A DNA stretch of 56,018 nt from a virus (Duplodnaviria > Caudoviricetes). Made by a program: the position numbers and the translations under genes. The notes under the pieces are model-generated. The model did not search any database, was not told the DNA's origin, and saw nothing but the letters and a program-made list of their open reading frames with translations. This document shows, in pieces, positions 2,340 through 24,171 of the stretch. The stretch is from the IMG/VR virus record IMGVR_UViG_3300043409_000151, positions 1 to 56,018 of that record. One strand, given 5' to 3'. Position 1 is the stretch's first letter; every line of letters starts with the position of its first letter.

Positions 2340-2555
2340 ATGCAATGCAGCCAAGCGAAACCGTTCACGATGACATCCAACAACTCCAAGATGGGTGGCG
2401 CAGCCATCAAGTCCTACGAGAAGGGTGGCATGGTAACGAAGCCCAAAGAGAAGGGCATCTACACCGCTGAGATGGGTCAGCCCCCACAAGACATCGACGG
2501 TGGCTCGGCCCCCCGCAAGCCCGCAAAACCCGCACCAGCACCCAAAAAGAAGTAA
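2340..2555 (+). CDS. Small basic protein carrying the SYEKGGMV motif
   Basis: AAGGAG SD; Lys/Pro-rich tail. Confidence 0.75.
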   Translation: MQCSQAKPFTMTSNNSKMGGAAIKSYEKGGMVTKPKEKGIYTAEMGQPPQDIDGGSAPRKPAKPAPAPKKK

Positions 2556-2556
2556 C

Positions 2557-2958
2557 ATGAAACGCGCCGCGAACCCCACCAAGACATCGCAGCCGTACAT
2601 CCGCTCTTACGAAAAGGGCGGCATGGTTGTCGATCCAGAGCGTTTGCAGATTGCTGGTGGGGGTAGCACCATCAACGAGGCAAATGTTAAAGGTGCCGCT
2701 GGTGGAGGCCGTGTGGGATATAGGTTTGCCGCTGGCCCAAACGCAGATGTTACCGCAGGTGTGTCCGGGTCTATGTCGCGGGTAAAGGTCAATACACCTG
2801 AAGGGGTGCGGCACTACGCCGATAAGCGGCTCACTGGGGTTGATTTGACATATCGTAAAGGCAATACCAGCGTTGGTGTTGGTGTTAGCAAAGGCCCGAC
2901 TCCTGATACGCCGCAGGGCGAAAAACGCTTGTCGTTGACATATCGGAAGGAATTTTGA
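2557..2958 (+). CDS. SYEKGGMV-tagged protein with a beta-strand-rich, outer-membrane-barrel-like body
   Basis: ATG 2557 follows TAA-C; alternating amphipathic strands; C-terminus LSLTYRKEF; stop overlaps portal ATG. Confidence 0.7.
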   Translation: MKRAANPTKTSQPYIRSYEKGGMVVDPERLQIAGGGSTINEANVKGAAGGGRVGYRFAAGPNADVTAGVSGSMSRVKVNTPEGVRHYADKRLTGVDLTYRKGNTSVGVGVSKGPTPDTPQGEKRLSLTYRKEF

Positions 2959-5015
2959 TGGCCGGACTGCAATTCCTGCGAGTCGTCAGCAACTCCGAGC
3001 TTGCCAAGCAGGAGCAGGAGGCGACGAACCGTGCGCTCTCTGAGCGCCAGAACCAGCCCGTGATCCTTGGCCTTGCCGGGTATCTGCGGCAGTGCTGGGA
3101 TGTGGCCCGCCTTGCCAAGCGCCCCATCGAGTACAAGATGCTGTCCGCGATGCGCCAGCGCAACGGCGAGTACGAAGCAGACAAGCTGCAACAAATTCGT
3201 GGACAGGGCGGCTCCGAGATTTACATGATGATCACCGAAGTCAAGTGCCGCGCTGCGGAGTCTTGGCTCAGGGACATCTTGCTCGACAACGGCTCACCCC
3301 CTTGGGACTTGAGCGCCTCGCCCATCCCCGACCTCGCGCCCGCGCAGACGAAAGAAGTGCAGGCCATGTTTGCAGAGCGTGTGCTCAAGATGGTCGAGGA
3401 GTACGGTAAAGCGCCCAGCGCCGAGGAGATGCGCGAGATCAAGGAGATGGTGTCGCAGGACTACCGCTTCGCCATTTTGCAAGAAGCCCAGATTCGCGCC
3501 GACCGGATGAAGGTCAAGATTCAAGACCAGTTCGCGCAAGGCGGCTGGGAAGCGTCGTTCAACGACTTCATTACCGATCTCGTCACCTTCCCCGCAGCCT
3601 TCATCAAAGGGCCGGTGGTGCGCCGCCAGCGCACGCTGGGCTGGAAGACAGACGCCTCGGGCCGCACCATCGTGGAACCCATCGAGCGCCTTGGGCCGGA
3701 GTACGAGCGGGTCGATCCGTTTCGCATCTACCCCGAGCCGGGGATCAGCAATATCAGCGAGGGGTACATCTTCGAGTTGCACCGCATGACCCGCATGGAA
3801 CTGTCCGACCTGATCGGCGTTCCGGGGTATGACGAAGACGCAGTTCGCAAGGTGCTCGACGAGGGCAATGGCACCTCGTGGATCAACGAAGACGTGGAAC
3901 TCCAGAAGGACGAGGAGGAGCGCAAGTACTACGCCTACATGCGCCCAACCACCGAGTACGACGCGCTGGAGTTCTGGGGCAAGGTCAGCGGCAAGATGCT
4001 CGTCGAGTGGGGTCTGACCGCAGATGAAGTGCCTGACGAAGCCCGCGAGTACGACGCCAACGTCTGGATGGTGGGCAACTACGTCATCAAGGCGGTGCTC
4101 AACTATGACCCGCTGGGCGAGAAGCCCTACGCCAAGACCTCGTTCATCAAGTGCCCCGGCGCGTTCTGGGGTAAGGGTATACCCGAGATCATCGAAGACT
4201 TGCAGGGTGTGTGCAACGCCGCTGCCCGTGCGCTGGTCAACAACATGGGCATCTCGTCTGGCCCACAGGTCGAGGTCAACGTCGAGCGCCTGCCGCCCAA
4301 CGAGGACATCACCACACTGACGCCTTGGAAAATCTGGCAGACCATCAACGACCCGGTGGGTTCGAGCGCACCGGCCATCCGGTTCACGCAGCCCGACTCA
4401 CGGGCCACCGAGTTGGTGGGTGTGTACGAGAAGTTCAGCCGTCTGGCCGACGACCACTCGGGCATCCCGGCCTACGTCTACGGCGACTTGAACGTGCAGG
4501 GTGCTGGCCGCACGTCGTCTGGCCTGTCCATGCTCATGGGCGCGGCAGGCAAGGGCATTCGCCAAGTCGTGATGCACATCGACAGCGATGTGGTCAAACC
4601 CATTGTGCTTCGTCAGTTCGTGTACAACATGCGCTACGACGAAGACGAGGCCATCAAGGGCGATGTTGTGGTGATCGCCAAAGGCGCGATCAACCTCGCA
4701 GTCAAGGAGACTGTCAACATTCGCCGAATCGAGTTCCTCAATGCAACCGCCAACCCCGTGGATATGGAAATCATGGGCAAGGAAGGACGCGCCACCATCT
4801 TGCGAGAAGTGGCGAAAGGGTTGCAGATGTCTGCGGAGGATGTCATTCCCTCTCGGGAGAAGTCAGGTTATCAGGGTCGGATTCAGTCTAGGGCGATGGC
4901 TGCTCAAGCACAGCAGCAAGCCCCAGTACCCGGCGCGGAAAACCCTGATGGTTCGCCCAAAGGCGGGATGGAAGCCAACACAGTACAAAGCCGAGCAAGT
5001 GGGAGAGCAGCGTGA
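2958..5015 (+). CDS. Portal protein
   Basis: ~685 aa between terminase and scaffold; RVDPFRIYPEP and FWGKGIPEIIEDLQ...NAAARALVNN motifs of P22-like/podovirus portals; Gln-rich tail. Confidence 0.9.
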   Translation: MAGLQFLRVVSNSELAKQEQEATNRALSERQNQPVILGLAGYLRQCWDVARLAKRPIEYKMLSAMRQRNGEYEADKLQQIRGQGGSEIYMMITEVKCRAAESWLRDILLDNGSPPWDLSASPIPDLAPAQTKEVQAMFAERVLKMVEEYGKAPSAEEMREIKEMVSQDYRFAILQEAQIRADRMKVKIQDQFAQGGWEASFNDFITDLVTFPAAFIKGPVVRRQRTLGWKTDASGRTIVEPIERLGPEYERVDPFRIYPEPGISNISEGYIFELHRMTRMELSDLIGVPGYDEDAVRKVLDEGNGTSWINEDVELQKDEEERKYYAYMRPTTEYDALEFWGKVSGKMLVEWGLTADEVPDEAREYDANVWMVGNYVIKAVLNYDPLGEKPYAKTSFIKCPGAFWGKGIPEIIEDLQGVCNAAARALVNNMGISSGPQVEVNVERLPPNEDITTLTPWKIWQTINDPVGSSAPAIRFTQPDSRATELVGVYEKFSRLADDHSGIPAYVYGDLNVQGAGRTSSGLSMLMGAAGKGIRQVVMHIDSDVVKPIVLRQFVYNMRYDEDEAIKGDVVVIAKGAINLAVKETVNIRRIEFLNATANPVDMEIMGKEGRATILREVAKGLQMSAEDVIPSREKSGYQGRIQSRAMAAQAQQQAPVPGAENPDGSPKGGMEANTVQSRASGRAA

Positions 5016-5227
5016 TCAAGCCCGCACCGCAAGTCATCAAAGGATTGGCGATGGCCGTCCGGCAACACCCAGAACTTCTGGCGTGGATGGAAGGCGTGTA
5101 CGCGCATGAGATGAAGCGACTCCCGTTTGCGATTGACAATCCAGCAGTGTTTCAGGGGCGCTGCCAGATGATGGGTGAACTCATTGAGTTCGCCAAAGAA
5201 TCCCCTGCGATAGCGGCAAAGTTATGA
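5012..5227 (+). CDS. Small portal-adjacent hypothetical protein
   Basis: GTGA overlap with portal; FQGRCQ motif of the kind seen in small genes after podovirus portals. Confidence 0.75.
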   Translation: MIKPAPQVIKGLAMAVRQHPELLAWMEGVYAHEMKRLPFAIDNPAVFQGRCQMMGELIEFAKESPAIAAKL

Positions 5228-5273: not shown

Positions 5274-6311
5274 ATGGCAATTCCAGAGCAAATTCGCAAA
5301 CAGACCGAGGCCGTACAGCAGTTGTATGCGCAACTCAACCCGGACGACAACACAGGCGGAGCATCCTCCGCCAATGGCACCGTCACGCCCGTTGAGAACA
5401 CCAACAACATGCAGACCGCCGACGAGAACGCTGCGTCGAATAATGCTTCTCCGTCACCCGTAGATGAGCAGAAAACGGGTGCTGACAACGCACCGGAAGA
5501 AACCGTCGTCCAGAAGTACAAAACACTTCAGGGCATGTACAACGCTGAAGTCCCGCGCCTGCACCAGCAGAACCGCGAGATGACCCAGCGCGTGCAGCAG
5601 ATGGAACAGTTGCTTGCCTCGCTGTCTGCACAGCAAGCGAGCGCCCAGCCCCAACAACAAGTCGCCGAGAAGATCGTCACCGACAAAGATGTTGAGGAAT
5701 ACGGCGAGTCGCTTGATGTGATGCGCAAGGTGTCCCGCGAGGAGTTATCTCCCGTGGCACAGCGCCTTGCCAAGATCGAGGGGATGCTTCAGCAGATGCA
5801 GATGAACGTGGTGCCACAGGTGCAAGCCGTGGCGCATCGTCAGCAGATGTCCGCCGAGCAACAGTTCTGGGCTGAATTGACGACCACTGTCCCCAACTTC
5901 CGTCAGGTGAACGACAACGCCGACTTCCAGTCGTGGTTGTTGCAAGCTGACCCGTTGACGGGCATCACACGTCAAACATACCTTGACGACGCACAACGCA
6001 ACCTCGATGCAAATCGAGTTGGCAATTTCTTCCGTGCTTGGCTAGAGTCCACTGGACAAGTTGCAGTTGCTCAATCCACTGGTCGCGCTGCCAGTTCTGA
6101 GTTGGAAAAGCAGGTCGCCCCCGGTCGCTCAAGAGGTGCCGGTTCCCCTGCAAACCCCAGCCAAGGCAAGACATACTCGCCCACGGACATCACGAAATTT
6201 TTCACCGATGTCCGCACCGGCAAGTACAAAGGCCGAGAGCAGGAGCGTGACCGAATCGAACGCGATATTTTCGCTGCCCAGCGAGAAAACCGCATTACCG
6301 CAAATGCCTGA
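5274..6311 (+). CDS. Capsid scaffolding protein
   Basis: Directly upstream of capsid gene; acidic disordered N-terminus, coiled coil (YKTLQGMYNAEVPRL), C-terminal ENRI-type coat-binding end. Confidence 0.8.
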   Translation: MAIPEQIRKQTEAVQQLYAQLNPDDNTGGASSANGTVTPVENTNNMQTADENAASNNASPSPVDEQKTGADNAPEETVVQKYKTLQGMYNAEVPRLHQQNREMTQRVQQMEQLLASLSAQQASAQPQQQVAEKIVTDKDVEEYGESLDVMRKVSREELSPVAQRLAKIEGMLQQMQMNVVPQVQAVAHRQQMSAEQQFWAELTTTVPNFRQVNDNADFQSWLLQADPLTGITRQTYLDDAQRNLDANRVGNFFRAWLESTGQVAVAQSTGRAASSELEKQVAPGRSRGAGSPANPSQGKTYSPTDITKFFTDVRTGKYKGREQERDRIERDIFAAQRENRITANA

Positions 6312-6327
6312 TTAAAGGAGTTACATC

Positions 6328-7251
6328 ATGTCTTATCCCGTTTCCCCCGGTCGTCCCAATTACAGCGGCAACTTCATTCCCGAAATCTGGTCGGGCAAAC
6401 TGATCGAGAACTTCTACGACGCCACCGTGCTCGCAGCGATCTCGAACACCGACTACGAAGGTGAAATCCGCCAGTACGGCGACGCCGTGAACATCCGCAC
6501 CACGCCGGAAATCACCATCCGCGACTACGTGAAGGGCCAAACCCTGACCGTGGAAAATCCTGACAAGCCAAAAATCCAACTGTTGATCGACAAGGGCGAG
6601 TACTTTGCCTGCGTTGAGGACGATGTGGACAAGGTTCAGTCGGACATCAACCTGATGGACACTTGGACGAAAGACGCTTCCGAGCGTATGAAGATCAAGA
6701 TCGACCAGCGCGTGTTGACCGACATCCTGCCCGGTATCGCCTCTACCAACAAGGGTGCTACCGCTGGTGAGCAGTCTGCCTCGTTCAACCTCGGCACGAC
6801 CGGCGCTCCGCTGACCGTGACCAAGGACGGCGCATCGAGCACCACTTCCGTTGTTGACCTGTTGGTTGACCTCGGCACCGTGCTGGACGAAGCCAACGCC
6901 CCCGAAGGCGACCGCTTTGTGGTCATCCCCGCCAAGATGGCTGGTCTGATCAAGAAGTCCGAACTGAAGGACGCTTCGCTCACCGGCGACAGCATGTCCA
7001 TCGTTCGCAACGGTCGTCTCGGTATGATTGACCGCTTCACCGTCTACGTCAGTCACAACCTTGCTGTGTCTTCTGGCAAGTACAACATCATCGCCGGTCA
7101 CAAGATGGGCTTCACGTTTGCGTCGCAGATGACGAACATGGAAACCATCCGTTCCGAGTCCACCTTCGGCAACATCGTCCGTGGCCTTCAGGTCTACGGT
7201 TACAAGGTTGTCAAAGGCGAAGCTCTGTCCACCGCCGTCGTGCAATTCTGA
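6328..7251 (+). CDS. Major capsid protein (HK97 fold, P22 coat-like)
   Basis: NFIPEIWSGKL, NTDYEGEI..GD.V.I, RFVVIP, NG.LG.IDRFTVYVSHNL, RGLQVYG.KVV; strong SD; highly biased codons. Confidence 0.92.
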   Translation: MSYPVSPGRPNYSGNFIPEIWSGKLIENFYDATVLAAISNTDYEGEIRQYGDAVNIRTTPEITIRDYVKGQTLTVENPDKPKIQLLIDKGEYFACVEDDVDKVQSDINLMDTWTKDASERMKIKIDQRVLTDILPGIASTNKGATAGEQSASFNLGTTGAPLTVTKDGASSTTSVVDLLVDLGTVLDEANAPEGDRFVVIPAKMAGLIKKSELKDASLTGDSMSIVRNGRLGMIDRFTVYVSHNLAVSSGKYNIIAGHKMGFTFASQMTNMETIRSESTFGNIVRGLQVYGYKVVKGEALSTAVVQF

Positions 7252-12733: not shown

Positions 12734-15004
12734 ATGGGAATCCAACTGAAGAACAACGCCTCCGGCACACTGGCAACTGCGATTAACGCCTCGGACACGG
12801 GCATCGTCCTGACGACGGGCAACGGAGCCAGCTTCCCTGCGCTCGGCGCGACCGACTACTTCTACGCCACGCTGGAGAGCACAGGCGGCACGTTTGAGGT
12901 GATCAAGGTCACAGCGCGGTCGGGCGACTCCATGACCGTGGTGCGGGCACAGGAAGGCTCTACGGCCAACTCTTTTGCTGCGGGTTCCCGCATTGAGTTG
13001 CGCGTCACTGCGCAGTCTGTGTTGGATGCAGTTGATCAGGCGACAGCAGCGCAGGTCGGAGTGACGCCATATGGTTGGATCGCGGCTACCGATGTGCAAG
13101 ACGCATTTGAGGAAGTCGTAGATGATCTCGGCGCTTCATCCGGCTCTTCGCTCGTCGGGTTCCTTCAGTCCGGTACTGGCGCTGTAACTAGAACAGCGCA
13201 AGCAAAAATGCGTGAGCGCATCAGCGTCCAAGATTACGGCGCTGTTGGTGACGGTGTGACTGATGACGCAGCCGCAATTCTTAAAACGTTTAATTATTCA
13301 CGAACTATCGGTGGGTGTGATGTTGATTTCCCAAAGGCTAATTATTTGATTAGCCACGGCTTCAACGTCCCAACAAACACAACTGTTCACTTAAATGGTT
13401 CAACCATTAAAGCAACAACTACTTTCTCGCAAGGCACAATTCCAACTTACGGTGCGATCTCTATGTTTGAGGTCAGCAACCGTGTTCCTTTTGCTGGCGC
13501 ACCCGCAATCGAAAACATTTCCTTTATTGGTGACGGCGCAATTTTGGACGGTCGCCGTGATGAACAAACTGGGTCGCCTGCTGGTTATGACGGCATCCTG
13601 TTTGAGACAAGCGACACGCCTCAACAAGCTGACTTTGGCAAGATCAGAAACATCTTGGTGAGCGACATCACAATTGACCGTGCCGGTTATGACGGCTTTT
13701 ATGTTGCTGGCGTTGACGACATGGAAGTTCGCAACGTCAAAACTTTCTTCTCACCTCGCATCGGCATCGTGGTCGTGGCTGGTTTAAATATTCGATTCAT
13801 TGACTGCGAATCCAGCTACACCATTGGTGACAACCCCGGATCGCCTACACCCGGCCCCGGCAACAGTGGTGATGGTTATTGGAACGAACCAAACTTTGCT
13901 TGGCAGACTATTGATGTCAAGTATTTGAATTGCTACGCATCCAAAAACTACCAGTCCGGCTTCAAGCCATTCAACGCTGGTGCAGATGCGTCCTTCTTCA
14001 TTGAGTTGGTTGCCTGTAAAGGTTTTGACAATTGCTGGGACGAAGTGACAGGTACTCGATTGTCGTCACCAGCCGAAGCCAACTTTCGTGTCAGCCTGAA
14101 TGACACCGCAAGCGCGTCGGCGTACCTGCTGTTCAAGGACTGCGTATCGCAAACATCCGAGCGTAGTGGTTTTAGCCTTCAGCGTGGTGCAGCAAGTGGC
14201 GCAGGCTACGTGCAACGCATCATTGTTGACAACCTTACAGTAATGGATTGCAATCGCAGCAACACTGACGGGTTAAATCGTAGCCCCATTCAAGTTGCAT
14301 CAACCGCTGCATCAACATATCCACTTATTGTGTTTAACGCGCCCGTTGTTGTGTCCACATACAACAACACCTTGGGTTATGGCATTGCTGTTGACGATCC
14401 AACTGGTGTGTTCATCAACAATCCAATTTTTGCGGGGGTGTTTAGCGAGCAATTGTTCATCACTGGCACTCTGCCCGGATCGCGCACAACATCAAACATC
14501 CCAAACTTTTTTCTTGATCCTAACGCTGATCAGTCTCCTACTGGCATTGCTGGTGATGTGACCAAGTTTTACAAGCCAGTGCGTTTGGCTTCTTTTGATC
14601 AAACAGCACAGCCTTCCACTGGCGATATGTTTGCCAATGAGTTAACCGTTTGGCAGAAAGACGACAATCAGTTTGTCGGAATGTTTAAGCGTGACGACTC
14701 GGCATCCTTGCAGTATTTGGATTTCAGAAATGAACGCAGAATCCGTGCTGTTTTGAATCTTTCGGCATCTTCTGCGAACATATCTGCACAAAGTGTCGAA
14801 ACTCACACTTTGACGGTTACTGGTGCTGTTGTTGGCGCTTACGTTGAGGTGTCTATGAACGTGGCGCTTAACAACGCTTTGATTCTTCAAGCGCAAGTGT
14901 CAGCCGCCAACACTGTGACCATCAACATCCACAACCCATCCAGCGGGACTATCAGCCGTGCTGCTGGTTTCGTCACTGTTAATGTATTGTCGTCTGACGT
15001 TTGA
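12734..15004 (+). CDS. Tailspike 1, right-handed beta-helix (pectate lyase-like depolymerase)
   Basis: Anchor domain, GSSLVGFLQSGTGAVTRTAQAKMRE neck, SVQDYGAVGDGVTDDAAAI motif, beta-helix repeats. Confidence 0.85.
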   Translation: MGIQLKNNASGTLATAINASDTGIVLTTGNGASFPALGATDYFYATLESTGGTFEVIKVTARSGDSMTVVRAQEGSTANSFAAGSRIELRVTAQSVLDAVDQATAAQVGVTPYGWIAATDVQDAFEEVVDDLGASSGSSLVGFLQSGTGAVTRTAQAKMRERISVQDYGAVGDGVTDDAAAILKTFNYSRTIGGCDVDFPKANYLISHGFNVPTNTTVHLNGSTIKATTTFSQGTIPTYGAISMFEVSNRVPFAGAPAIENISFIGDGAILDGRRDEQTGSPAGYDGILFETSDTPQQADFGKIRNILVSDITIDRAGYDGFYVAGVDDMEVRNVKTFFSPRIGIVVVAGLNIRFIDCESSYTIGDNPGSPTPGPGNSGDGYWNEPNFAWQTIDVKYLNCYASKNYQSGFKPFNAGADASFFIELVACKGFDNCWDEVTGTRLSSPAEANFRVSLNDTASASAYLLFKDCVSQTSERSGFSLQRGAASGAGYVQRIIVDNLTVMDCNRSNTDGLNRSPIQVASTAASTYPLIVFNAPVVVSTYNNTLGYGIAVDDPTGVFINNPIFAGVFSEQLFITGTLPGSRTTSNIPNFFLDPNADQSPTGIAGDVTKFYKPVRLASFDQTAQPSTGDMFANELTVWQKDDNQFVGMFKRDDSASLQYLDFRNERRIRAVLNLSASSANISAQSVETHTLTVTGAVVGAYVEVSMNVALNNALILQAQVSAANTVTINIHNPSSGTISRAAGFVTVNVLSSDV

Positions 15005-15019
15005 ACAAGGAGCATTGAA

Positions 15020-15280
15020 ATGGCACTCACCAAAGACATAAAGTTCAAAGGAATCACCATTCCTCTTGCCTACATCAGGGTCAACAATTTTTCTGGAAGC
15101 AAAGACAATATTGCGTTCAATGTTGGCTTTTATGGAAATGCAGACGAGAACGGCGAACGCGAGATGTTTGACCAAAAAGCATATCAGTGCGCGTACAACC
15201 TCAACGGTCTAAACGCAGTAGCACAGGCTTACGAGCATCTTAAAACCTTGCCTGAGTTCGCAGGCGCACTGGAGTCCTAA
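15020..15280 (+). CDS. Putative tailspike chaperone/accessory protein
   Basis: AAGGAG SD; follows tailspike; QAYEHLKTLPEFAGA C-terminus. Confidence 0.6.
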   Translation: MALTKDIKFKGITIPLAYIRVNNFSGSKDNIAFNVGFYGNADENGEREMFDQKAYQCAYNLNGLNAVAQAYEHLKTLPEFAGALES

Positions 15281-15282
15281 TC

Positions 15283-16095
15283 ATGGCAGATACAAAAATC
15301 TCTGCGCTGACCAGCGCAACAGTGCCACTGGCAGGTACGGAAGTATTGCCAATTGTTCAAGGTGGGCAAACACGCAAAGTACCTGTTTCTGACTTAACCG
15401 CAGGCCGTGCAATTGCTGCTTCAGCCGCAACAATTACTGGCGCAACTACCGCAGTTTCGTTGACGTTGGCAAACAGTGGTGGTGGAACAAACGCCACTTT
15501 TGCGGTTACTGAAAACACGGGTGTTACGCTTAACTTGAACGAAGGTGCAACTGCCCGTCAGTTGATTATTCAACAAGGCGGCGTTGAAACTTGGCGTTTT
15601 AATGCTTCTGGTAATTTTGCGGCAGCAGATGGCAAAGGCATCGACTTTTCTGCCACATCGGGCACAGGCACAAGCGAGTTGCTGGATGACTATGAAGAAG
15701 GTACTTGGACAGTTTCGTTTTTTGATGCTGCTAGTGGTGGCAATGCATCGGCAACCACCACAACTGGTTATTACACCAAAGTTGGCAACTGTGTGACCGC
15801 AGTATTTAGCGTATCAAATATTAGCACCGCTGGAATGACTGGTGGAAATGCGTTTTATTTTACGCTTCCATTTACGTCTGCTACCACAATAGGTATTGGA
15901 ACGGGTGCTTCCGTTTTAGAGCAGTTTACATTTCCAGCATTAAGAACTATGGTTGCTCCTTATATATCTGATAATAGTGCAAGAGGATTTTTTAGAGCAT
16001 CTGGAAGTGCTGTTGATACTTCAAGCATTTTGGTAAGCGAACTGTCAACTGGAGTGTCAGACATTGAAAGATGCGCTGTCACATATTTTGCATAA
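15283..16095 (+). CDS. Tail fibre protein
   Basis: MADTKISALT...LPIVQGGQTRKV N-terminus; GIDFSAT...ELLDDYEEGTWT...GYYTKVGN..LPFT domain. Confidence 0.8.
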   Translation: MADTKISALTSATVPLAGTEVLPIVQGGQTRKVPVSDLTAGRAIAASAATITGATTAVSLTLANSGGGTNATFAVTENTGVTLNLNEGATARQLIIQQGGVETWRFNASGNFAAADGKGIDFSATSGTGTSELLDDYEEGTWTVSFFDAASGGNASATTTTGYYTKVGNCVTAVFSVSNISTAGMTGGNAFYFTLPFTSATTIGIGTGASVLEQFTFPALRTMVAPYISDNSARGFFRASGSAVDTSSILVSELSTGVSDIERCAVTYFA

Positions 16096-16106
16096 AGAGG
16101 TTTAAT

Positions 16107-17393
16107 ATGGCTTTAACAAAAGCAACGTATTCAATGATTAATGGCGCTGTTGCTAACGTATTTGATTACGGGGCAACAGGCAACGGCACTACAGATGACA
16201 CAGCAGCAATTCAAGCTGCTTTTAATTCTGGCGCATCGTGCATTTTTATTCCTGAAGGTGTTTACATTATTAGCGACACGCTTCAAGTGCCGACCAGAAC
16301 AACTGTTCGTGGTGCATCCGCAGCAGTCAATCAATACGGTACAGTACAACAAACTGGTGCGATACTAAAAGCCGCTGCTGGCGCATTGTCGGGGTCTAAG
16401 GCCGTTATTCAAGCGGGTCAAGCATCCGAACTCGGAAACATTGAATTGCACGATTTAGTGGTTGACATTAAAGACGCGCATTCAACGGCAATTGGTGTCA
16501 AAAAAGAAACGTGCAACCACTTTGTAATGATAAACATTTACGTGGCGGCAAGTCTTGGCACAAGTACTCAAATTGCGTATTTCAACGGAAACGGCACACA
16601 TGGATATTTCCAAAACTTAAATTTGACTGGTGGTAAATATTCAATTTACATGGATAACACGCCGGGTCGTGAATGCCATGACAGCGTTTACAACAAAGTT
16701 TGGATGTATCCCGCAGAAATTACTGGCGCAGCTTGTATGTTTTTTCCTGTCAATGGTGGAAATGCCATTAGCACTTGGATTATGCCCTACATGGAAACCG
16801 GCTCAAGCGGGCTGGTGACTGGAATTTACACATCAAACCTTGCTGAAGTTGAAATGACAATGCTTTACCCAATGTGGGATGGAACATTTTTGTGGCTTTG
16901 GAACGCTCAATATCCATCAAGAACTAGATTTATTGGAAGTAATATATCAACTTTTGACCCATCAAATTTCAATGGGTCGTTTGGTCGCTGTTCAATTATT
17001 GGACGAGAGGGCAACCAGCTTGTCGAAAAGTTATATCTTTATGACGTTGGCAGTGAACTTCAATTTGGTGTTGATTCGTCAGGATTTAATTTTGGCCGTA
17101 TAAGTGCTGGCGCGGCAAAAATTAGTCGTATCCAAGGCGGCAAAAAGACAGAGGTTATCGGCACAGTCAACTCTGGAAGTGTTTTTACAGATACGATATC
17201 AGTCCCGAATGCGGACGTTGGAGACCCAGTTGTCATCGGCATGGACTGGAACGGTGCTGGTGCTTATACGCTAACTGCTCAAGTTGTGTCTAGTGCAACA
17301 GTTCGATACTGGCTTCAGAACAATTCTGGAGCACCAGTTGACTTTGGAACCAGAGTGTTGAAAGCTGTTGTGATCAATGGCACCATAACTTGA
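16107..17393 (+). CDS. Tailspike 2 (beta-helix, no anchor domain)
   Basis: MALTKATYSMINGA, NVFDYGATGNGTTDDTAAIQAA, IFIPEGVY. Confidence 0.8.
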   Translation: MALTKATYSMINGAVANVFDYGATGNGTTDDTAAIQAAFNSGASCIFIPEGVYIISDTLQVPTRTTVRGASAAVNQYGTVQQTGAILKAAAGALSGSKAVIQAGQASELGNIELHDLVVDIKDAHSTAIGVKKETCNHFVMINIYVAASLGTSTQIAYFNGNGTHGYFQNLNLTGGKYSIYMDNTPGRECHDSVYNKVWMYPAEITGAACMFFPVNGGNAISTWIMPYMETGSSGLVTGIYTSNLAEVEMTMLYPMWDGTFLWLWNAQYPSRTRFIGSNISTFDPSNFNGSFGRCSIIGREGNQLVEKLYLYDVGSELQFGVDSSGFNFGRISAGAAKISRIQGGKKTEVIGTVNSGSVFTDTISVPNADVGDPVVIGMDWNGAGAYTLTAQVVSSATVRYWLQNNSGAPVDFGTRVLKAVVINGTIT

Positions 17394-17403
17394 AAGGTCA
17401 GCC

Positions 17404-17685
17404 ATGAATAATTACAAAATAGTCAGTGTAGATTCTGACGCCGCCACCGGAGCAATTCATGCAGTGTGGTTGGAAATAACCAGACAGGTTGAAAGCCAGC
17501 AGCAAACTGCTGTTTTGGGGGTGTCGTTGGACTACAACACCAGCGGCCCAGAGTTTTTGCCGTATTCGTCAGTAACTGAAAGTGTTGCCCTCAAGTGGGC
17601 AAAAGACAAGATCAAAGAAAGTGAGATTGAGGCTCAGTTCAAACGGCTGTACCCTGCAAAACCAACCTCAGTTGTTCCTTGGTAA
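17404..17685 (+). CDS. Putative fibre assembly protein
   Basis: FLPYSSVTESVALKWAK...VVPW motif of small proteins that follow phage fibres. Confidence 0.6.
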   Translation: MNNYKIVSVDSDAATGAIHAVWLEITRQVESQQQTAVLGVSLDYNTSGPEFLPYSSVTESVALKWAKDKIKESEIEAQFKRLYPAKPTSVVPW

Positions 17686-17732
17686 ACCGTACTGGCCCGA
17701 TGACCAGAAATTGATTTTGATTGGAGATCAAA

Positions 17733-17990
17733 ATGGCGCTTGAGAAAGTTCAGATTGTTGACCGCATCGAAGTGGTCGAATCGGGTGTTGTGCAAGTTCG
17801 CACCAAGACCGCCATCAAAGAAGATGGCGTTGAAATCAGCAGCAAGTTCCACCGCCATGTCGTTGCCCCCGGCGATGATTACAGCGCCGAGGACACCCGT
17901 GTGCAGGCCATCTGTGCGGCGACGCACACTGCTGAAGTTGTTGCTGCGTATCAAGCTGCCCAAGAAGCTGCACGTCTCCCGCAGGAGTAA
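17733..17990 (+). CDS. Putative fibre chaperone
   Basis: MALEKVQIVDRIEV...VQVRTKT.IKEDGVEIS..FHRHVV.PGDD..AED..VQAIC; GGAG SD. Confidence 0.7.
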   Translation: MALEKVQIVDRIEVVESGVVQVRTKTAIKEDGVEISSKFHRHVVAPGDDYSAEDTRVQAICAATHTAEVVAAYQAAQEAARLPQE

Positions 17991-17996
17991 AGCCCG

Positions 17997-18284
17997 ATGG
18001 ATCAGACGATTGTCAACTGGCTGTTTGCAGGACTAGGTGCCACCCTTGGGTGGGTGCTGAAGGTCGTCTGGGATGCCATCAAAGAATTGAAGGCCGATAT
18101 GAAGCAGATCGAACGTGACCTCCCTGAAGTCTACGTCCGCAGGGACGACTTCAAAGTTGCAATGACTGACATCAAGGACGACTTCAAGGAGTTGAAGCAC
18201 GACATGAAAGACGGCTTCAACAAGATCGACAGCACCCTCGGGCTGCTGTTCAAAAAGCTCGAAACCAAACTTACCAAGGAGTAA
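17997..18284 (+). CDS. Membrane-anchored coiled-coil protein (lysis region)
   Basis: N-terminal hydrophobic segment, LPEVYVRRDDF motif, coiled coil. Confidence 0.65.
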   Translation: MDQTIVNWLFAGLGATLGWVLKVVWDAIKELKADMKQIERDLPEVYVRRDDFKVAMTDIKDDFKELKHDMKDGFNKIDSTLGLLFKKLETKLTKE

Positions 18285-18287
18285 ATC

Positions 18288-18473
18288 ATGCCCGGAATGA
18301 TGATGAAAAAAGACAAGCCCGCCGCCATGCCTATGGCCTACAAAAAAGGCGGTATGGTTAAGAAGCCCATGTCCTATGAAAAGGGCGGCATGGTACCTAA
18401 AGCAATGCACAAAATGCCTGACGGCAAGATGATGCCCGGTACCAAGCACGGCTCCAAAACTAAGGCCAAGTAA
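18288..18473 (+). CDS. Met/Lys-rich peptide with two YxKGGMV motifs
   Basis: AAGGAG SD; AYKKGGMV and SYEKGGMV; HKMPDGKMM tail. Confidence 0.75.
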   Translation: MPGMMMKKDKPAAMPMAYKKGGMVKKPMSYEKGGMVPKAMHKMPDGKMMPGTKHGSKTKAK

Positions 18474-18521
18474 CCCACGCGCTGCGGCGTTTGGGTCAAC
18501 CCGTTGGTTAAGTAGTACCAC

Positions 18522-18968
18522 ATGATTGCCGAAATTGCCGCAGCGAACGCTGCATTTAATGTCATCAAAGCAGCCCTTGCCAATGGCAAGGAGTTGTCTG
18601 CGCTCGGGTCAAGGGTCTTTGACTACTTTGACAACAAGGCGGTCATCCAAGAAAGAGCCACCAAGAAGGGCGGCGGCAGCGACATAGAAGAATTCATGGC
18701 GCTGGAGCAACTGAACGCTCAGGAGGTGGAGCTTCGTGAGCGCATGGTCTACGCTGGCCGTCCGGGGATGTGGAGTGATTGGCAGAAGTTCCAAGCCGCA
18801 GCGGCACGTAGACGCAGGGAAGCCAAAGAAGCAGCCGCCAGAGAAGCAAAGAGACGTCAGCGGCAGCTTGAGGACATGGCTGAGTACATAGCCATCGGAT
18901 TGGGAGTAATCGTCCTTGCTGGCCTTCTGGTCGGCGGCATCGTCCTTTACACGAAGCACTTGCGATGA
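18522..18968 (+). CDS. Hypothetical protein with a C-terminal TM helix
   Basis: Helical body; IAIGLGVIVLAGLLVGGIVLY TM; ATGA overlap with next gene. Confidence 0.7.
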   Translation: MIAEIAAANAAFNVIKAALANGKELSALGSRVFDYFDNKAVIQERATKKGGGSDIEEFMALEQLNAQEVELRERMVYAGRPGMWSDWQKFQAAAARRRREAKEAAAREAKRRQRQLEDMAEYIAIGLGVIVLAGLLVGGIVLYTKHLR

Positions 18969-19582
18969 GCGACGAAAAGCTGAACGCCAACACAACACTC
19001 GACAAGGTGCTCGGGTATGTGGACTCGCCGTTCAAGCTGTTCGCCATCCTCATCATGGGCGTGGTGGCCTTTGCTGGGTACTTCCTTTGGCAGAACCAAA
19101 CCTTCATGCTGGACGCATACAAGGAGTCCAAGAAACTGCCGGAGATCAACACCAGCCGCGCTGACGATGCAAGCTCTATGCTGTTCAAGCAAACCGGGGC
19201 GGCGGTAGTAGCGATCTTCAGGGTCAACCCGCTGTTCAACAGCCGGGTGCTGTACCGGGCCTACACCAAGGACGGGCGCGACAAGACGATTGAAGACATC
19301 GACGTGGGTCTGTTCAGCCAGAACTCATCCAACAACTCGGATGTCGTCAAGCTGATGACAAACGAGATTCCTTGCGGCGAGTACCGATACGCTCAATCCG
19401 AGGTAGGCTTGTGGTATATCGAGAAGGGCGTAAAATTTACCTGCCGGGTAAGTGTGCCGCCTGACTCGCATCGGTTTGTTGGACAGATCACGGTAGGTTG
19501 GGCCGAACCTCCTGTGGATATAGAGCAGGTCAAATTCATGCTGGAGATTGCCAGCACGATACTAACTAAAAGGGGTAACTGA
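18965..19582 (+). CDS. Single-TM protein with a periplasmic GAF-like domain (holin T-like?)
   Basis: TM near residues 25-42; C-terminal CRVSVPP...FVGQITVGW pattern; in lysis cassette. Confidence 0.5.
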   Translation: MSDEKLNANTTLDKVLGYVDSPFKLFAILIMGVVAFAGYFLWQNQTFMLDAYKESKKLPEINTSRADDASSMLFKQTGAAVVAIFRVNPLFNSRVLYRAYTKDGRDKTIEDIDVGLFSQNSSNNSDVVKLMTNEIPCGEYRYAQSEVGLWYIEKGVKFTCRVSVPPDSHRFVGQITVGWAEPPVDIEQVKFMLEIASTILTKRGN

Positions 19583-19583
19583 T

Positions 19584-20081
19584 ATGGATTGGCTCAAACA
19601 GATTGCACCGACTATCGCCACCGCAATGGGTGGCCCGCTTGCTGGTATGGCTGTGTCGGCCATCTCCAAAGCTATCGGGGTTGACCCGGACAAAGTTGGC
19701 GACATGATCTCCAACAACAAATTGTCAGCAGAGCAGATTGCACAGGTCAAGATTGCTGAGATCGAACTGCAAAAGCAGGCGCAAGAACTTGGCCTCAATT
19801 TTGAAAAGCTGGAGGTTGAAGACAGGAAGTCAGCACGGGAGATGCAGGCTACCACCCGCTCAATGATGCCGCCCATTCTGGCTGGCGCGGTCACGATAGG
19901 CTTCTTCGGCATCGTGACACTGATGTTTTTCAGCAAGATAGACGAAAACAATCCAGCCATCCTGATGATGCTTGGCTCACTCGGCACCGCATGGACGGGC
20001 ATCATCGCCTATTATTTTGGTAGCAGTGCTGGCTCACAAGCCAAGACCGACCTGCTCTCTAAATCGGGGCCAGCAAAATGA
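19584..20081 (+). CDS. Holin-like membrane protein
   Basis: APTIATAMGGPLAG, EVEDRKSAREMQ, two TMs, IIAYYFGSSAGS; directly upstream of the endolysin. Confidence 0.7.
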   Translation: MDWLKQIAPTIATAMGGPLAGMAVSAISKAIGVDPDKVGDMISNNKLSAEQIAQVKIAEIELQKQAQELGLNFEKLEVEDRKSAREMQATTRSMMPPILAGAVTIGFFGIVTLMFFSKIDENNPAILMMLGSLGTAWTGIIAYYFGSSAGSQAKTDLLSKSGPAK

Positions 20082-20542
20082 ACCTGACTGAAAACTTCAC
20101 GCTGTCCGAGATGACCAAAAGCGAAACCGCTTTGCGCCACGACATGGACAACTCGCCCGACCAGACGGCGATCAGCAACTTGCAGGCGCTGGCTGTACAT
20201 GTACTCCAACCTGTGCGTGACCACTACGGCAAGGGCGTGAAAGTCAACTCGGGCTTCCGCCATCCTGATGTCAACGCCAAGGTGGGTGGCTCCAAAACGT
20301 CTGACCACTGCAAAGGCATGGCAGCGGACATCGAAATCCCCGGTGTACCCAACGCAGAACTGGCCGAGTGGGTTCGCGGCAATCTCCCATTTACTCAGGT
20401 GATCCTTGAGTTCTATACTCAGGGTGTGCCGGACAGCGGCTGGGTGCATGTGTCGTATGACCCCGCAAACCTGAAGAAGCAGGCGCTGACTGCCGTCAAG
20501 CAAGACGGCAAAACGGTTTACCTACAAGGATTGGTTGCGTAA
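20078..20542 (+). CDS. Endolysin, peptidase M15A (Zn D,D-peptidase fold)
   Basis: LTENFTLSE, VNSGFR...NAKVGGSKTSDH..G.AAD, WVHVSY. Confidence 0.9.
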   Translation: MNLTENFTLSEMTKSETALRHDMDNSPDQTAISNLQALAVHVLQPVRDHYGKGVKVNSGFRHPDVNAKVGGSKTSDHCKGMAADIEIPGVPNAELAEWVRGNLPFTQVILEFYTQGVPDSGWVHVSYDPANLKKQALTAVKQDGKTVYLQGLVA

Positions 20543-22977
20543 TGGCTGGGATCAAGATCACAAACTTCCTCGGCAAGGCTCCCAAGGTTAGCCCGGAGTT
20601 GCTGCCGAACACGGCTGCGCAGATCGCACAGAACTGCAAGCTGTACTCAGGTGATCTGATTCCCTACCCACAACCTGTTGTGGTTGACAACACTGAGCGC
20701 ACTGGCGTGATCAAGACGCTGTACGCGCTGCGCAACCCGGCCAACCCGAACGATCTGAAGTGGCTCTCGTGGAACACTGAGGTCAGCATCGCGGTGGCCT
20801 CGGCCAACTTGCAAGACGAGCAGCGGTTCTACTACTCCGGCGACGGCTCGCCCAAGATCAGCAACTACGATCTGGCGACATCGGGCGCTGCCCCGTATCC
20901 GGTCGGGTACTACGATCTCGGTCTGCCCATACCGCTCACTTCGCAGGTGTTGACCACGGTCGCTGCGACGTTCACAACCAAGACCACCGCCAGCTTTGCA
21001 CGAGATGCGGGCAATACCGCCACCATCATCACCGGCACAGCGCACGGCCTGCGCACGGGCAACAGCATTACCATCTCAGGCTTCACGTTCCGCACGGGAA
21101 CCTACAATCAACCCGGCACCACGACCATCACGGTCACGCTCAACGGCCACGGGCTGGCGAACGGCGCGTCTGTCACGCTGGACTACACCTCCGGTACGGC
21201 AGTCGATGGCACGTTCGACATCGCCAACGTCACGGTCAACACGTTCGACATCACAGTCGCCACTGCGGCCACGACCAGCGGTAACGTCAACCTCAACATC
21301 CGCAGCTTCAACGCGACCAACGTGGAATGCACCGTGGTCAACACTACCACGCTCACCTACTTCAGTCCCGGTGTACAGATCACAACAACCGCTTACACGG
21401 ATGGCAACGTCGATCTCGGCGGGCTGACGCAGGCCCGCTCTTACGTCTTCACATGGTTCACACCGTGGGACGAGGAGTCCATCGCCTCCAAGCCATCGGA
21501 CAACCTGTACATCAAAGAGGGCATTCAGGTCACGGTCAGCGCCATCCCCACGGTCAAGCCTTCGGGCGACAACTTTGTGCGTGGTGTACGCCTGTACCGC
21601 ACGCTGGCGGCAGCTTCCGGCACTGAGTACTTCCGCCTCGCCACGCTCTGGTTCCCCACCGGGCTGACGACTGTGCAGCGCACGGCCAACGTCTCGCGGG
21701 TCACGCTGTTGTTTCCTCACAACTTGTCGGAGGAAGACCGCTTCAAAATCAGCGGTTGCACCGTGGCATCGTTCGACATCACAGGCGGCATCGTCACTGA
21801 TGTGATCGACGACTACACCTTCGAGTACGCGCAGGCGGCGGGGGACGTGGCTTCTACCGCTGTGGGTGCAGGCACCATGTTCCATGATGTCTCCGAGAAC
21901 CCACCCACGACTGCGGCCCGGTACTGGGGCGACGGCGGCAACTTCGATTTCCTCGACGACTTCGATTCGCGCAACTTGCTCGACGTGCTTGCCAGCGATG
22001 AGTACGACTCGCCGCCCGAAGACTTGCAGGGGTTGGTCACTGTCCAGAACAGCATCCTCGTGGGCTTCGTGGGTAACACGTTGTACTTCTCCGAACCCGG
22101 CCAGCCCAGCGCGTGGCCCAGTCGGTACGCCACCCCGGTGGGGGAGCAGATCGTTGCACTCGGGGCGATAGCCGGTTCCCTGCTGGTGTTGACCAAGGGT
22201 TATCCCTACATCGTTGCTGTGCGCGACCCGGCAGCGGGTGTGTCCGTTGACCGCATCGACGTGCTGTATCCCTGCCTGAGCGCCCAGAGTGTGGTCACGA
22301 TGGGCTACGGCATCGTCTGGTCTACCAACGACGGGCTGGCCGTGTACTCGCCCACCAGCGGCGCGGCGCTTGTCACCAAGGCGTTGTACAACAACGACAC
22401 GTGGACGGTGGATGTCAACCCCAACACGGTCGTGGCTGAATACTACGGTGAGAACTACCTTGCCTCGCACTCCACCGGCTCGTTCGTGTTTGAGCAGGAC
22501 GCCAAGGTGGGCGGCTTCTTTGTGGACACTGACCCGGTGTTCACTGCCTCGTGGTACGACACACAGACTGGCAAGCTGTACTACGTCTCCGGCACGCTGG
22601 GCGATGTCTACGAGTGGGACGATCTGAGTCAGCCCGCCCTGACAATGGAGTGGAAGTCCAAGGTCATCATCACCAAGGACATGCTCAACCTCGGCGCAGC
22701 CCGAGTGATTGCCGACTACAGCACCGTGACCAACACATGGGACACTGAGACGGTGCTGTGGAACTCTGCGCTGACCAACTGGAACAACGCCGATGAGATC
22801 ACGTTCTACCTCTGGGTGAACAAGCAGTTGATTTTCACCACCACGGTCAACGACGTGGATGGGTTCCGCCTGCCCACTGGGTATCGCACCGATACCTTCG
22901 AGGTGGGTGTCGAGGGTAACGTCCGGGTGCGAGCGATTCACTTGGCCGAAACCATGTTCGGCCTGCGGGAGGTGTAA
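20542..22977 (+). CDS. Tail nozzle/tail tubular B-like (DNA stabilisation) protein
   Basis: GKAPKVSPELLP..AAQIAQN N-terminus; LYFSEPGQPSAWP beta-propeller; LPTGY...FEV C-terminus. Confidence 0.75.
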   Translation: MAGIKITNFLGKAPKVSPELLPNTAAQIAQNCKLYSGDLIPYPQPVVVDNTERTGVIKTLYALRNPANPNDLKWLSWNTEVSIAVASANLQDEQRFYYSGDGSPKISNYDLATSGAAPYPVGYYDLGLPIPLTSQVLTTVAATFTTKTTASFARDAGNTATIITGTAHGLRTGNSITISGFTFRTGTYNQPGTTTITVTLNGHGLANGASVTLDYTSGTAVDGTFDIANVTVNTFDITVATAATTSGNVNLNIRSFNATNVECTVVNTTTLTYFSPGVQITTTAYTDGNVDLGGLTQARSYVFTWFTPWDEESIASKPSDNLYIKEGIQVTVSAIPTVKPSGDNFVRGVRLYRTLAAASGTEYFRLATLWFPTGLTTVQRTANVSRVTLLFPHNLSEEDRFKISGCTVASFDITGGIVTDVIDDYTFEYAQAAGDVASTAVGAGTMFHDVSENPPTTAARYWGDGGNFDFLDDFDSRNLLDVLASDEYDSPPEDLQGLVTVQNSILVGFVGNTLYFSEPGQPSAWPSRYATPVGEQIVALGAIAGSLLVLTKGYPYIVAVRDPAAGVSVDRIDVLYPCLSAQSVVTMGYGIVWSTNDGLAVYSPTSGAALVTKALYNNDTWTVDVNPNTVVAEYYGENYLASHSTGSFVFEQDAKVGGFFVDTDPVFTASWYDTQTGKLYYVSGTLGDVYEWDDLSQPALTMEWKSKVIITKDMLNLGAARVIADYSTVTNTWDTETVLWNSALTNWNNADEITFYLWVNKQLIFTTTVNDVDGFRLPTGYRTDTFEVGVEGNVRVRAIHLAETMFGLREV

Positions 22978-23336
22978 TGGCTATCCGACCACCACGATTT
23001 ACGGCGATCCCCAGCATCCCCCAACAGGGGCTGACGGACTGGCAGTTCAGCACGCTCAACGCCATGAAGGAGAACATCGAACTCCTGACCGGGGCCAGAG
23101 GTGCAAACGCTGCCTCTGCAACGGCGCTGACCCGAGGCTCTGTGACGGTGGCAAACCCACCGGCTCAGACAATGACACAAGTGACGGCTGTAGGAGCGGG
23201 GTTTACAATCAGTGGAACGAATGTACCCAGCCTCGACGATTATGTAAAACTTGTCGGCAACGTACAACAACTTGCCAACGATGTAGCCACTTTGCGCAGC
23301 GTAGTCAACGCGCTGATCAACCAACTGAAAGGGTAA
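22977..23336 (+). CDS. Hypothetical tail protein
   Basis: TAATG coupling; AMKENIELLTG; coiled-coil end. Confidence 0.7.
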   Translation: MAIRPPRFTAIPSIPQQGLTDWQFSTLNAMKENIELLTGARGANAASATALTRGSVTVANPPAQTMTQVTAVGAGFTISGTNVPSLDDYVKLVGNVQQLANDVATLRSVVNALINQLKG

Positions 23337-23340
23337 CTCC

Positions 23341-24171
23341 ATGAACAACCCCGGCATGACAAACCTCGATCTGCCCCCGGCGCTCGCCAGCATCTTGAGC
23401 ATGGGCAGCAGCGCCGCGCCCAGCGCACCTATGGGCGGCAACGCCCGTGCAGGACTGGCTTCCGGCATGATGGGGCAGCAGTCGTTCATCCCATCGTACC
23501 AAGCAGGCGGCATGATCGGCGAGGGCGGTATGCCTGACCAAGCAGGTATGGGCATGGGTATGGGCGCAGCCCCGTCGGGCAATGTCGGCCTGACCCCGCA
23601 GGGCCAGCCACAAGGCGGCGCGATGTCGCCGCAAATGATGGAGATGCAGATCAACCAGTTTGCAACCCAGCGCCCGCAGGAGTTGGCTCAGATCAAACAG
23701 GCCATCATGCAGGTGATGCAGACCGGCGAGTTGACCCAGCAAGAACTCAACATGATTGTCCAGTTGGCGACCGTGGCCGCGCAGAACCCGGAGATGTACT
23801 CCTACGTGCGCAACTTTGCCATTCAGCAGGGTATCGCCACCGAGCAAGACTTGCCCCCGGAGTACGACCAAGGGCTGGTTTTTGTGCTGCTCCTCGCCGC
23901 TCGTGCGATCCAAGCGGATGTGGGTGGGCAGAACATGATGCAAGGCGGTAGTCCTGCAATGGCCGGTGGCCCGGAGATCGCCGCATCCCAAGTGACCAGT
24001 GGTGCGATCCCCTCAATGGCCCGTGGTGGTATGACCCCTGACTCCAAAAAGGCTGACGGGTCTGTACTGATCAACGCACATGAAGGAGAATACGTCATCC
24101 CTAAGCGCGTGGTCGAAATGAAGGGCAAGGAGTTCTTCGACAGCTTGGTTGAGAAGTACAAGGACGCATGA
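23341..24171 (+). CDS. Putative internal virion protein with two xxGGM motifs and a GEYV domain
   Basis: SYQAGGMI, SMARGGMT, AHEGEYVIPKRVV; Gln/Met/Gly-rich; in ejection-gene block. Confidence 0.7.
   Translation: MNNPGMTNLDLPPALASILSMGSSAAPSAPMGGNARAGLASGMMGQQSFIPSYQAGGMIGEGGMPDQAGMGMGMGAAPSGNVGLTPQGQPQGGAMSPQMMEMQINQFATQRPQELAQIKQAIMQVMQTGELTQQELNMIVQLATVAAQNPEMYSYVRNFAIQQGIATEQDLPPEYDQGLVFVLLLAARAIQADVGGQNMMQGGSPAMAGGPEIAASQVTSGAIPSMARGGMTPDSKKADGSVLINAHEGEYVIPKRVVEMKGKEFFDSLVEKYKDA

Follow-up and report, generated by a model that had tools for sequence, protein, structure and literature searches.

We investigated a short peptide motif, hereafter the Y-box (aromatic-x-x-Gly-Gly-x-Val/Ile), in the late genes of the virus record IMGVR_UViG_3300043409_000151. 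This record is a whole virus genome of 56,018 bases (CheckV completeness rating 100%), and its full length is referred to below as the window. The motif, which takes the form S-Y-x-x-G-G-M-V in the window, lies in four + strand genes. Two of them occupy the slot between the terminase and portal genes: p71 (2340-2555) encodes a 71-amino-acid (aa) protein made of an N-terminal bipartite tag and a basic Pro/Lys-rich tail, and p133 (2557-2958) encodes a degenerate form of the first tag element (the N-box) and a Y-box, then six long predicted beta strands ending in Phe. The third gene, p61 (18288-18473), encodes a 61-aa Lys/Met-rich protein with two Y-boxes, and the fourth, p276 (23341-24171), belongs to a block of ejection genes. 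An initial annotation had proposed that the peptide loads unrelated late proteins into the virion or marks them for cleavage.

The Y-box and its carrier proteins

Translation recovered all six peptide copies of the initial annotation, each in frame with a + strand open reading frame (ORF): SYEKGGMV in p71 (2412-2435) and in p133 (2605-2628), AYKKGGMV and SYEKGGMV in p61 (18336-18359 and 18372-18395), SYQAGGMI in p276 (23494-23517) and SMARGGMT further along p276 (24013-24036). The last of these is present, but it is a distinct variant with Met at the aromatic position (the M-box) and belongs to a larger C-terminal module.

A six-frame scan with the pattern [SA]Y..GGM[VI] returned five matches, all in two + frames and none in the other four, and the corresponding degenerate DNA pattern matched five times, whereas 100 shuffles that preserved dinucleotides gave a mean of 0.00. 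The comparison was extended to 140 related IMG/VR loci, i.e. 141 with the window's own locus (L001), in which a slightly relaxed pattern gave 110 matches, all on the coding strand (110/110). Among 85 distinct DNA contexts, the Tyr codon was TAC in 48 and TAT in 22, the remaining 15 having Met (ATG) at this position, and both Gly positions used all four codons. The conserved unit is thus the peptide and not the DNA, as first suggested, and the motif is above chance and kept in orthologues through synonymous changes. The carrier proteins are rich in Gly, Met and Lys, which could favour fortuitous matches; the empty shuffles, the four frames without a match and the conservation in orthologues despite synonymous changes nevertheless refute chance, low complexity or a functionless DNA repeat as the origin of the motif.

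Relatives of p71, p61 and p276 were detected by tblastn in 20, 25 and 54 of the 140 loci, respectively. Five complete relatives held 2, 2, 0, 1 and 2 copies of Y-x-x-G-G-M (reversed-pattern controls, 0), so that the window, with five copies against at most 2, is the richest in this form.

The terminase-portal interval was hypervariable, with 52 distinct proteins of 58-247 aa in loci L062-L141 and the window; the portal loci were the best 80 of the 414 stretches encoding a portal relative. Two additional pattern matches in this set lay outside the slot, in off-frame ORFs. The common slot type is that of p71, for which an alignment (A3) showed invariant residues M1, C3, Q5, K7, P8, F9, S13, N15, K17, G19, S25, Y26, G29, G30 and V32. 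Its tag starts with the N-box, S-N-N-S-K-M in p71 (2376-2393, + strand) and S-x-N-x-K-M/L in general, which was found in 32/32 aligned slot proteins with N15 and K17 invariant. The Y-box followed 8-10 residues after the N-box in 19/32; the remaining 13/32 read on directly as K-M-D-T-S-G-M-A-G-K-P, which resembles the Y-box shortened by ten residues. Cys3 (M-Q/K-C-S/G-Q; 2340-2348 in the window) was invariant in 13 slot sequences of A3 and may be a site of N-terminal modification; gp6.7 of phage T7 likewise has a Cys beside its initiator Met.

We then built a profile from 16 N-terminal tags (42 positions) and searched it against 1.84 billion protein representatives, of which 60 matched at E<=1e-3, 21 of them at E<=1e-10. 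Fifty-five of these 60 were 44-240 aa long and matched the profile at the N-terminal end; by pattern, 52 of the 55 contained a Y-box and 51 an N-box. Behind a single N-box stood from one to three Y-boxes, those in tandem being nine residues apart; several proteins had two or three, but a single copy was the rule in slot proteins. Tails were defined as the sequence after the last box (at least 25 aa) and grouped by blastp links at E<=1e-3. The 53 tails of this census fell into 24 groups without a link between them, the largest having 18 members. The modular tag first proposed was thereby retained in a modified form: the Y-box is the second half of an N-terminal tag found on at least 24 mutually unrelated tails. 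A bipartite tag on 24 unlinked tail groups is the pattern that characterises an address tag with changing cargo, and the census is the strongest support for the loading-tag idea. Pfam searches with 24 tagged proteins found no significant family, two weak matches lying below the cut-off. The five other profile matches were set aside as not being slot proteins: four were unrelated repeat proteins (two with ankyrin repeats, a DUF5801 adhesin and a further repeat protein), and the fifth was the tape measure protein P0199 described below.

For the second slot gene, the most likely start is ATG 2557 (133 aa), which immediately follows the p71 stop codon, rather than GTG 2500. No relative of p133 was found in the 140 related loci or in a viral contig scan, and a locus whose portal is 96% identical runs from p71 directly to the portal gene; p133 is therefore an inserted extra gene. 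A large protein collection held five homologues. One of them, 52% identical, has a full N-box and a Y-box in the form F-K-D-G-G-M-V, so that the tag is kept while the rest diverges, and a 73-aa protein (P0153) fuses a p133-type tag to a p71-type tail. The carriers had been described as unrelated outside the peptide; this does not apply to p71 and p133, which have a longer N-terminal tag in common. An AlphaFold2 (AF2) model of p133, built from 7 sequences, had a mean predicted local distance difference test (pLDDT) of 75, with residues 1-22 disordered, pLDDT falling below 50 over the tag, and six long antiparallel strands over residues 30-131, the last ending in an invariant Phe. The top-ranking structural matches were outer-membrane barrels. 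Structure comparison with VIA-align returned the KdgM porin (Z 8.4, root-mean-square deviation 3.9, 86 aligned residues), CdiB (7.6), the Sam50 complex (7.5), LptD (7.3) and OprF (7.0), Z values in a range where a common arrangement alone may be shared. Foldseek returned Ail at E 0.065, with NspA and the EspP barrel matching less well, and an ESM Atlas search gave unnamed viral clusters only. We describe the modelled p133 tail as a membrane-barrel-like sheet and go no further.

Relatives of p61 comprised 28 proteins in the large collection. Most relatives (~50 aa) have one Y-box, then a four-Cys tail, F-K-P-C-x-x-C-P-x-x-x-K-C-x-x-x-G-x-C, which may be a metal-binding or disulphide knot; these four-Cys relatives come from loci L005-L055 (e.g. 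L011:8770-8919 and L015:7777-7932). In the window, p61 carries its second Y-box where the relatives have the four-Cys tail. A weaker copy of the motif, GSPKGGME (4950-4973), had also been reported in the portal tail. This peptide is real and conserved, but it is not a Y-box: it is part of PDGSPKGGMEANTV (4944-4985, + strand), kept in nearly all relatives listed, which has the general form P-D-G-S/T-P-K-G-G-M/Q-E-x-N-T-V and lies in the last ~25 residues of the portal, behind a variable Gln/Ala-rich linker. As it has neither the aromatic nor the hydrophobic position, we treated it as a separate element.

The p276 protein, with 889 homologues, is organised as a disordered N-terminal part with the Y-box, a helical domain (residues 93-200, nucleotides 23617-23940), a disordered linker with the M-box and a C-terminal module. 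In an alignment of 28 orthologues (A1, down to 44% identity), Y53, G56, G57, M58, G60 and G63 were invariant amid otherwise unalignable sequence, as were M226, G229 and G230 of the M-box; across 46 orthologues (26 distinct box pairs), the second box had Met without exception. AF2 gave pLDDT values below 50 for residues 1-92 and 202-231 and of about 80 for residues 93-200 and 240-276, the folded parts being the helical domain and the last 37 residues only. Both boxes of p276 are therefore conserved islands in predicted disordered linkers between modules. The C-terminal module has the core H-E-G-E-Y-V-I-P-K-R-V-V (24079-24114, + strand; GG ... GE[YF]V[IV]P), with G229, G230, G249, E250, V252, P254 and V258 invariant in A1, i.e. 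a Gly-Gly box then a G-E-(F/Y)-V core of the tape measure type. The p276 C-terminus matched phrog_3547 weakly (E 2.4e-4), Foldseek found no match to the p276 model in the PDB at E<=0.001, and a PDB sequence search with p276 gave a chance match only (E 1.3).

Taken together, these results show that the Y-box is a genuine motif under selection as a peptide. It is modular and N-terminal in the slot proteins and lies within disordered linkers.

Genome and late-region setting

An exact direct repeat of 113 nucleotides (nt) was found at the record ends (23-135 = 55906-56018, start-to-start spacing 55,883), which indicates a circularly closed or terminally redundant genome, although the record is classed as 'linear'. 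According to PHROGs and Pfam scans of the ORFs, the left arm (+ strand) is a podovirus-type late region, with the large terminase (808-2196), the portal protein (2958-5015; Pfam SU10_portal E 3.5e-11, phrog_332 E 3.5e-52), a probable scaffold (5274-6311), the major head protein (6328-7251), tail fibres (12734-17393), and a group of small membrane proteins with an M15 peptidase (17997-20542). An 811-aa internal virion protein (20542-22977, + strand; phrog_511 E 2.7e-107) marks the ejection-gene block, which further contains p276, a lytic transglycosylase-domain protein and a 2774-aa giant. The 811-aa protein is ~30% identical to Vibrio and Serratia phage proteins annotated as 'internal virion protein'. 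Bcep22-like DC1, Serratia phage Parlo, Ralstonia phage Dimitile and Vibrio phage D96a all carry it, and no Y-box was found in their p71/p276 counterparts.

The right arm (- strand) encodes a family A DNA polymerase, an SNF2 helicase and a primase-like DUF927 protein. Overall, the gene content is that of a podovirus, with an SU10-type portal and internal virion proteins, and tape measure or tail tube genes were not found in the ORF scans. The nearest cultured portal was that of Rhizobium phage RHph_TM3_14A (35% identical), HMO-2011-type marine phages being at ~26%. Near and protein-level searches of a phage collection with window bases 1-24999 and p276 gave no match. Uncultured relatives were numerous: besides the portal stretches and p276 homologues mentioned above, 60 loci held a relative of the 811-aa protein.

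Several other features were recorded. The 2774-aa ORF (27661-35985) closes the ejection block and has no Pfam family at E<=0.001; Bcep22-like phages and Serratia phage Parlo have giant virion proteins (DarB-like, or transglycosylase/helicase/methylase) in the matching position. Four consecutive small proteins with hydrophobic, membrane-helix-like stretches, as read by eye (17997-20081), surround the p61 gene upstream of the M15 peptidase, and this cluster could be a lysis cassette or a set of membrane-active ejection proteins. The G+C content was 0.46-0.47 across 14001-18000, i.e. in the tail-fibre genes, vs ~0.58 elsewhere, which suggests a host-recognition module exchanged recently. A 59-nt direct repeat (11985-12043 and 12812-12870, 76% alike) lies close to where two adjacent + strand ORFs start, one copy preceding the tail-fibre gene and the other at it, and may represent a common N-terminal adaptor segment or a recombination joint. 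On the - strand, 48543-49724 and 51029-52015 encode a putative DUF2201 metallopeptidase that includes a VWA-like domain (E 1.4e-47 and 4.3e-29); a weak AAA ATPase match lies nearby. The metallopeptidase is probably the 'zincin domain' of the initial annotation, and it is the sole candidate protease besides the cell-wall M15 peptidase.

Resemblance to internal, targeting and tape measure proteins

We compared the slot proteins with gp6.7 of phage T7, the small fourth core protein, for which a cryo-electron microscopy study (PMC11784390) describes twelve copies of residues 2-15 (N-terminal loop I) round the outside of the portal barrel, while a second loop, residues 34-50, binds the core protein gp15 in eight copies along the inside of its ring. 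The protein works via short loops and not via a fold, and it is ejected to form a channel with gp14, lining the trans-envelope passage (PMC11784390). Like p71, gp6.7 is small (88 vs 71 aa) and its gene lies upstream of the portal gene. It starts with M-C-F-S-P-K-I-K-T-P-K-M-D-T-N, to be compared with ...S-T-N-P-K-M-D-T-S-G in slot proteins, so that the N-box resembles its residues 9-13 (the P-K-M-D stretch). It differs by the lack of any Y-box in its sequence. The 16 gp6.7 relatives retrieved were all at least 90% identical, and the T7 gp7.3 family (PF11653) had no match in the genome. By analogy, gp6.7 may serve as the best working model for the slot proteins, closer than T4, although the membership tests given below failed or were weak.

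In phage T4, the capsid targeting sequence of IPI-III and Alt is a short N-terminal peptide common to proteins that have nothing else in common and that enter the head and are injected; the scaffolding core recognises this peptide and the prohead protease cuts it off. The slot tag is similar in its N-terminal position (55/55 short profile matches) and differs in being bipartite, and the boxes of p61 and p276 are internal. Head-maturation protease families were absent from the 31 + strand ORFs of 808-27657 scanned with PHROGs, 16 of them also by Pfam, and the only peptidase in these late ORFs was the M15 cell-wall peptidase. The T4 comparison is offered as an analogy. Double-glycine leaders are N-terminal peptides that end in Gly-Gly and are handled by a dedicated C39 peptidase transporter. 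We rejected this possibility because the conserved residues (M, V) go on past Gly-Gly; the Pfam scans, which covered part of the ORFs, found no C39 family among the window proteins.

A module like that of the p276 C-terminus was observed in tape measure proteins. Lambda gpH (~730-790) and T5 pb2 (around R1127) both present a bulky residue, two variable residues, Gly-Gly and a hydrophobic residue, with G-E-(F/Y/T)-V 8-25 residues after Gly-Gly, and, as proposed for p276, these proteins exit the virion before the DNA. The gpH sequence reads F-H-F-A-T-G-G-F-T-G ... V-H-R-G-E-F-V-F ... G-Y-A-T-G-G-Y-V-G, and that of pb2 F-V-P-R | A-E-G-G-M-M-Y-P ... G-E-H-G-T-E-V-V-T-P, the bar marking the cut after R1127 given in PMC10038345. 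The T5 cut thus falls two residues before the Gly-Gly of the same module. For lambda, PMC12617516 places the cut of gpH within its Gly-rich C-terminal region, states that site and catalyst are unknown, and gives residues ~690-817 as unresolved. Cleavage has been demonstrated for T5 and lambda only. These likenesses have to be read with two differences, i.e. gpH and pb2 are the tape measures of long-tailed phages whereas the window is that of a podovirus without one, and the similarity scores are weak: hhalign aligned the p276 C-terminus with gpH over 73 columns covering the Gly-Gly stretch at E 0.023 and a probability of 2%.

The tape measure protein recovered by the tag profile, P0199 (2082 aa, PhageMin_Tail E 1.2e-25), contains 19 copies of (F/Y)-(A/S)-x-G-G between residues 1131 and 1729, spaced by 18 or 36 residues, which precede F-A-K-G-G-M-S ... 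G-G-E-A-Y-I-P-L. The tape measure proteins of HK97, T1 and SPP1 had no in-frame motif copy. We consequently dropped the idea that the motif is general in such proteins, since it is present in gpH, pb2 and P0199 and missing from these three.

Among cultured phages, the clearest match to the p276 C-terminal module was gp54 of Roseobacter phage CRP-9, an HMO-2011-type podophage whose portal is ~26% identical to that of the window. Its Gly-Gly boxes are followed by D-D-I-P-A-Q-L-S-E-G-E-Y-V-V-P-A-D-V-V...F-F-E-D-L; it differs in that the module lies inside a 1395-aa portal-adjacent protein and not in a 276-aa one. No N-box slot protein was seen in the 14-kb CRP-9 stretch. Rhizobium phage RHph_TM3_14A also has the module, as F-G-L-A-S-G-G-A-V ... 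N-V-G-E-F-V-I-P-E-D-V-V, and its presence in these two phages indicates that it is widespread. A limited literature search, which does not prove absence, found no description of the p276 C-terminal module, the Y-box or the slot tag.

Possible roles of the bipartite tag

The explanation we favour, with slightly less than even confidence, is that the Y-box may act as a short linear docking motif of small, ejected internal-core proteins similar to T7 gp6.7. Placed in the disordered parts of small proteins of the core or ejection apparatus, it would attach them to a shared portal-core partner. By analogy with gp6.7, the N-box would hold the slot protein on the outside of the portal barrel, the portal being the presumed docking platform, and the Y-box would contact a second, shared core partner, which would also take the Y-boxes of p276 and p61. 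The cargo behind the tag, such as basic tails or a sheet resembling an outer-membrane barrel, would be packed at the portal and would exit with the first ejected proteins. We infer virion presence, a portal or core partner and ejection for the tagged proteins, whose genes lie inside the structural and ejection gene blocks. The tandem Y-boxes behind one N-box would fit a summation of several weak contacts with a many-fold partner. A complex prediction of the portal (A4, 685 aa) with p71 (A3) scored 0.00 in two runs without controls, which speaks neither for nor against binding.

Several observations weigh against this docking role. The Y-box is missing from the 13/32 slot proteins noted above and Y-x-x-G-G-M from one of the five complete relatives, so the motif must be dispensable or replaceable. 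In more distant relatives, the position behind Gly-Gly is not stable (M, S, P, Q, A, K, V), and in p276 the two boxes were alike at this residue in 8 of the 26 distinct pairs (permutation p 0.36); drift without significant co-variation gives no sign of a co-evolving shared pocket. The link of the N-box with gp6.7 is also fragile: hhalign aligned the K-M box alone and weakly (E 0.062, probability 0.9%), and the family PF17570 (T7-like_gp67), which gp6.7 itself matched at E 3.4e-28, had no match at E<=10 among the 32 slot proteins or in the six-frame genome. Moreover, the 19-fold repeat of P0199 fits a structural repeat better than a docking peptide, and the cut of T5 pb2 adjoins its copy of the motif. 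Docking and subsequent cleavage are nevertheless compatible, as with the T4 tag.

This last point leads to the possibility, which we consider unlikely though not far-fetched, that the Gly-Gly box is a flexible joint cut by a host or phage protease, during assembly or after ejection, to free the cargo from its N-terminal anchor, much as the T4 targeting sequence is cut off and tape measure proteins are cleaved. The position of the T5 cut (PMC10038345) and the cleavage of gpH in a Gly-rich region (PMC12617516), which holds two motif copies, point indirectly in this direction; in addition, the boxes sit between modules in p276 and in slot proteins, and the putative DUF2201_N metallopeptidase gene (48543-49724, - strand) could supply an enzyme. 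However, no head-maturation protease family was found in the 31 late ORFs scanned, residues are conserved on both sides of the presumed cut, and the residue before it is Tyr, Phe or Met here and Arg in T5, so that a single protease specificity is unlikely. Boxes repeated nine residues apart, like the 19 copies of P0199, would also be shredded if all were cut.

These same repeats, together with the tandem copies in slot proteins and p61, would suit a self-assembling hairpin, i.e. a Gly-Gly beta-turn with aromatic and hydrophobic flanks, the copies of which would pair on ejected proteins without a folded receptor and build a beta collar at the portal or part of a trans-envelope conduit. The disorder of the boxes in monomer predictions and the membrane-barrel-like sheet of the p133 cargo agree with it, but we regard it as rather improbable: no prediction or structure displays such pairing, single-copy carriers are the rule in the slot, and the HK97, T1 and SPP1 tape measures are devoid of in-frame copies, which argues against the Y-box as a general building block of injection conduits. 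It is very unlikely, finally, that the box is unrelated to loading and, once ejected, binds the host envelope (peptidoglycan, a periplasmic chaperone or a membrane protein) to aid channel formation. The motif is common to the C-terminal parts of gpH and pb2, which act at the cell envelope; yet no feature of the window points to a host partner, and a fixed N-terminal site by the N-box in portal-adjacent genes is better explained by assembly.

For the favoured docking role, address tags on packaged proteins (T4) and small loop-binding core proteins (T7 gp6.7) are already known. New are the two-part tag of N-box and Y-box, the hypervariable slot beside the portal gene, whose proteins carry at least 24 unrelated tails, and the connection of a podophage tag with the Gly-Gly module in the cleavage region of tape measure proteins. 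A bolder and, as a whole, improbable extension is that abundant freshwater podophages possess a plug-and-play injection system, in which an address of ~30 residues (N-box for the portal barrel, Y-box for the core) would let the portal slot try out cargo delivered ahead of the DNA, one Gly-Gly code serving short- and long-tailed phages alike; the Gly-Gly box would then be the very element that marks the cleavage region of the lambda and T5 tape measures. The module link itself leads to a testable guess, namely that lambda gpH is cut beside its Gly-Gly box at ~733-741 or ~778-786.

If the tag loads proteins at the portal, it would offer a natural means of getting foreign proteins into phage particles, a use for which T7-type gp6.7 fusions have already been tried (bioRxiv 10.1101/2024.05.06.592667). 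It would also provide a sequence rule to find injected phage proteins in metagenomes, i.e. candidate anti-defence or host-takeover factors, and the hypervariable slot of an abundant uncultured phage group would be explained.

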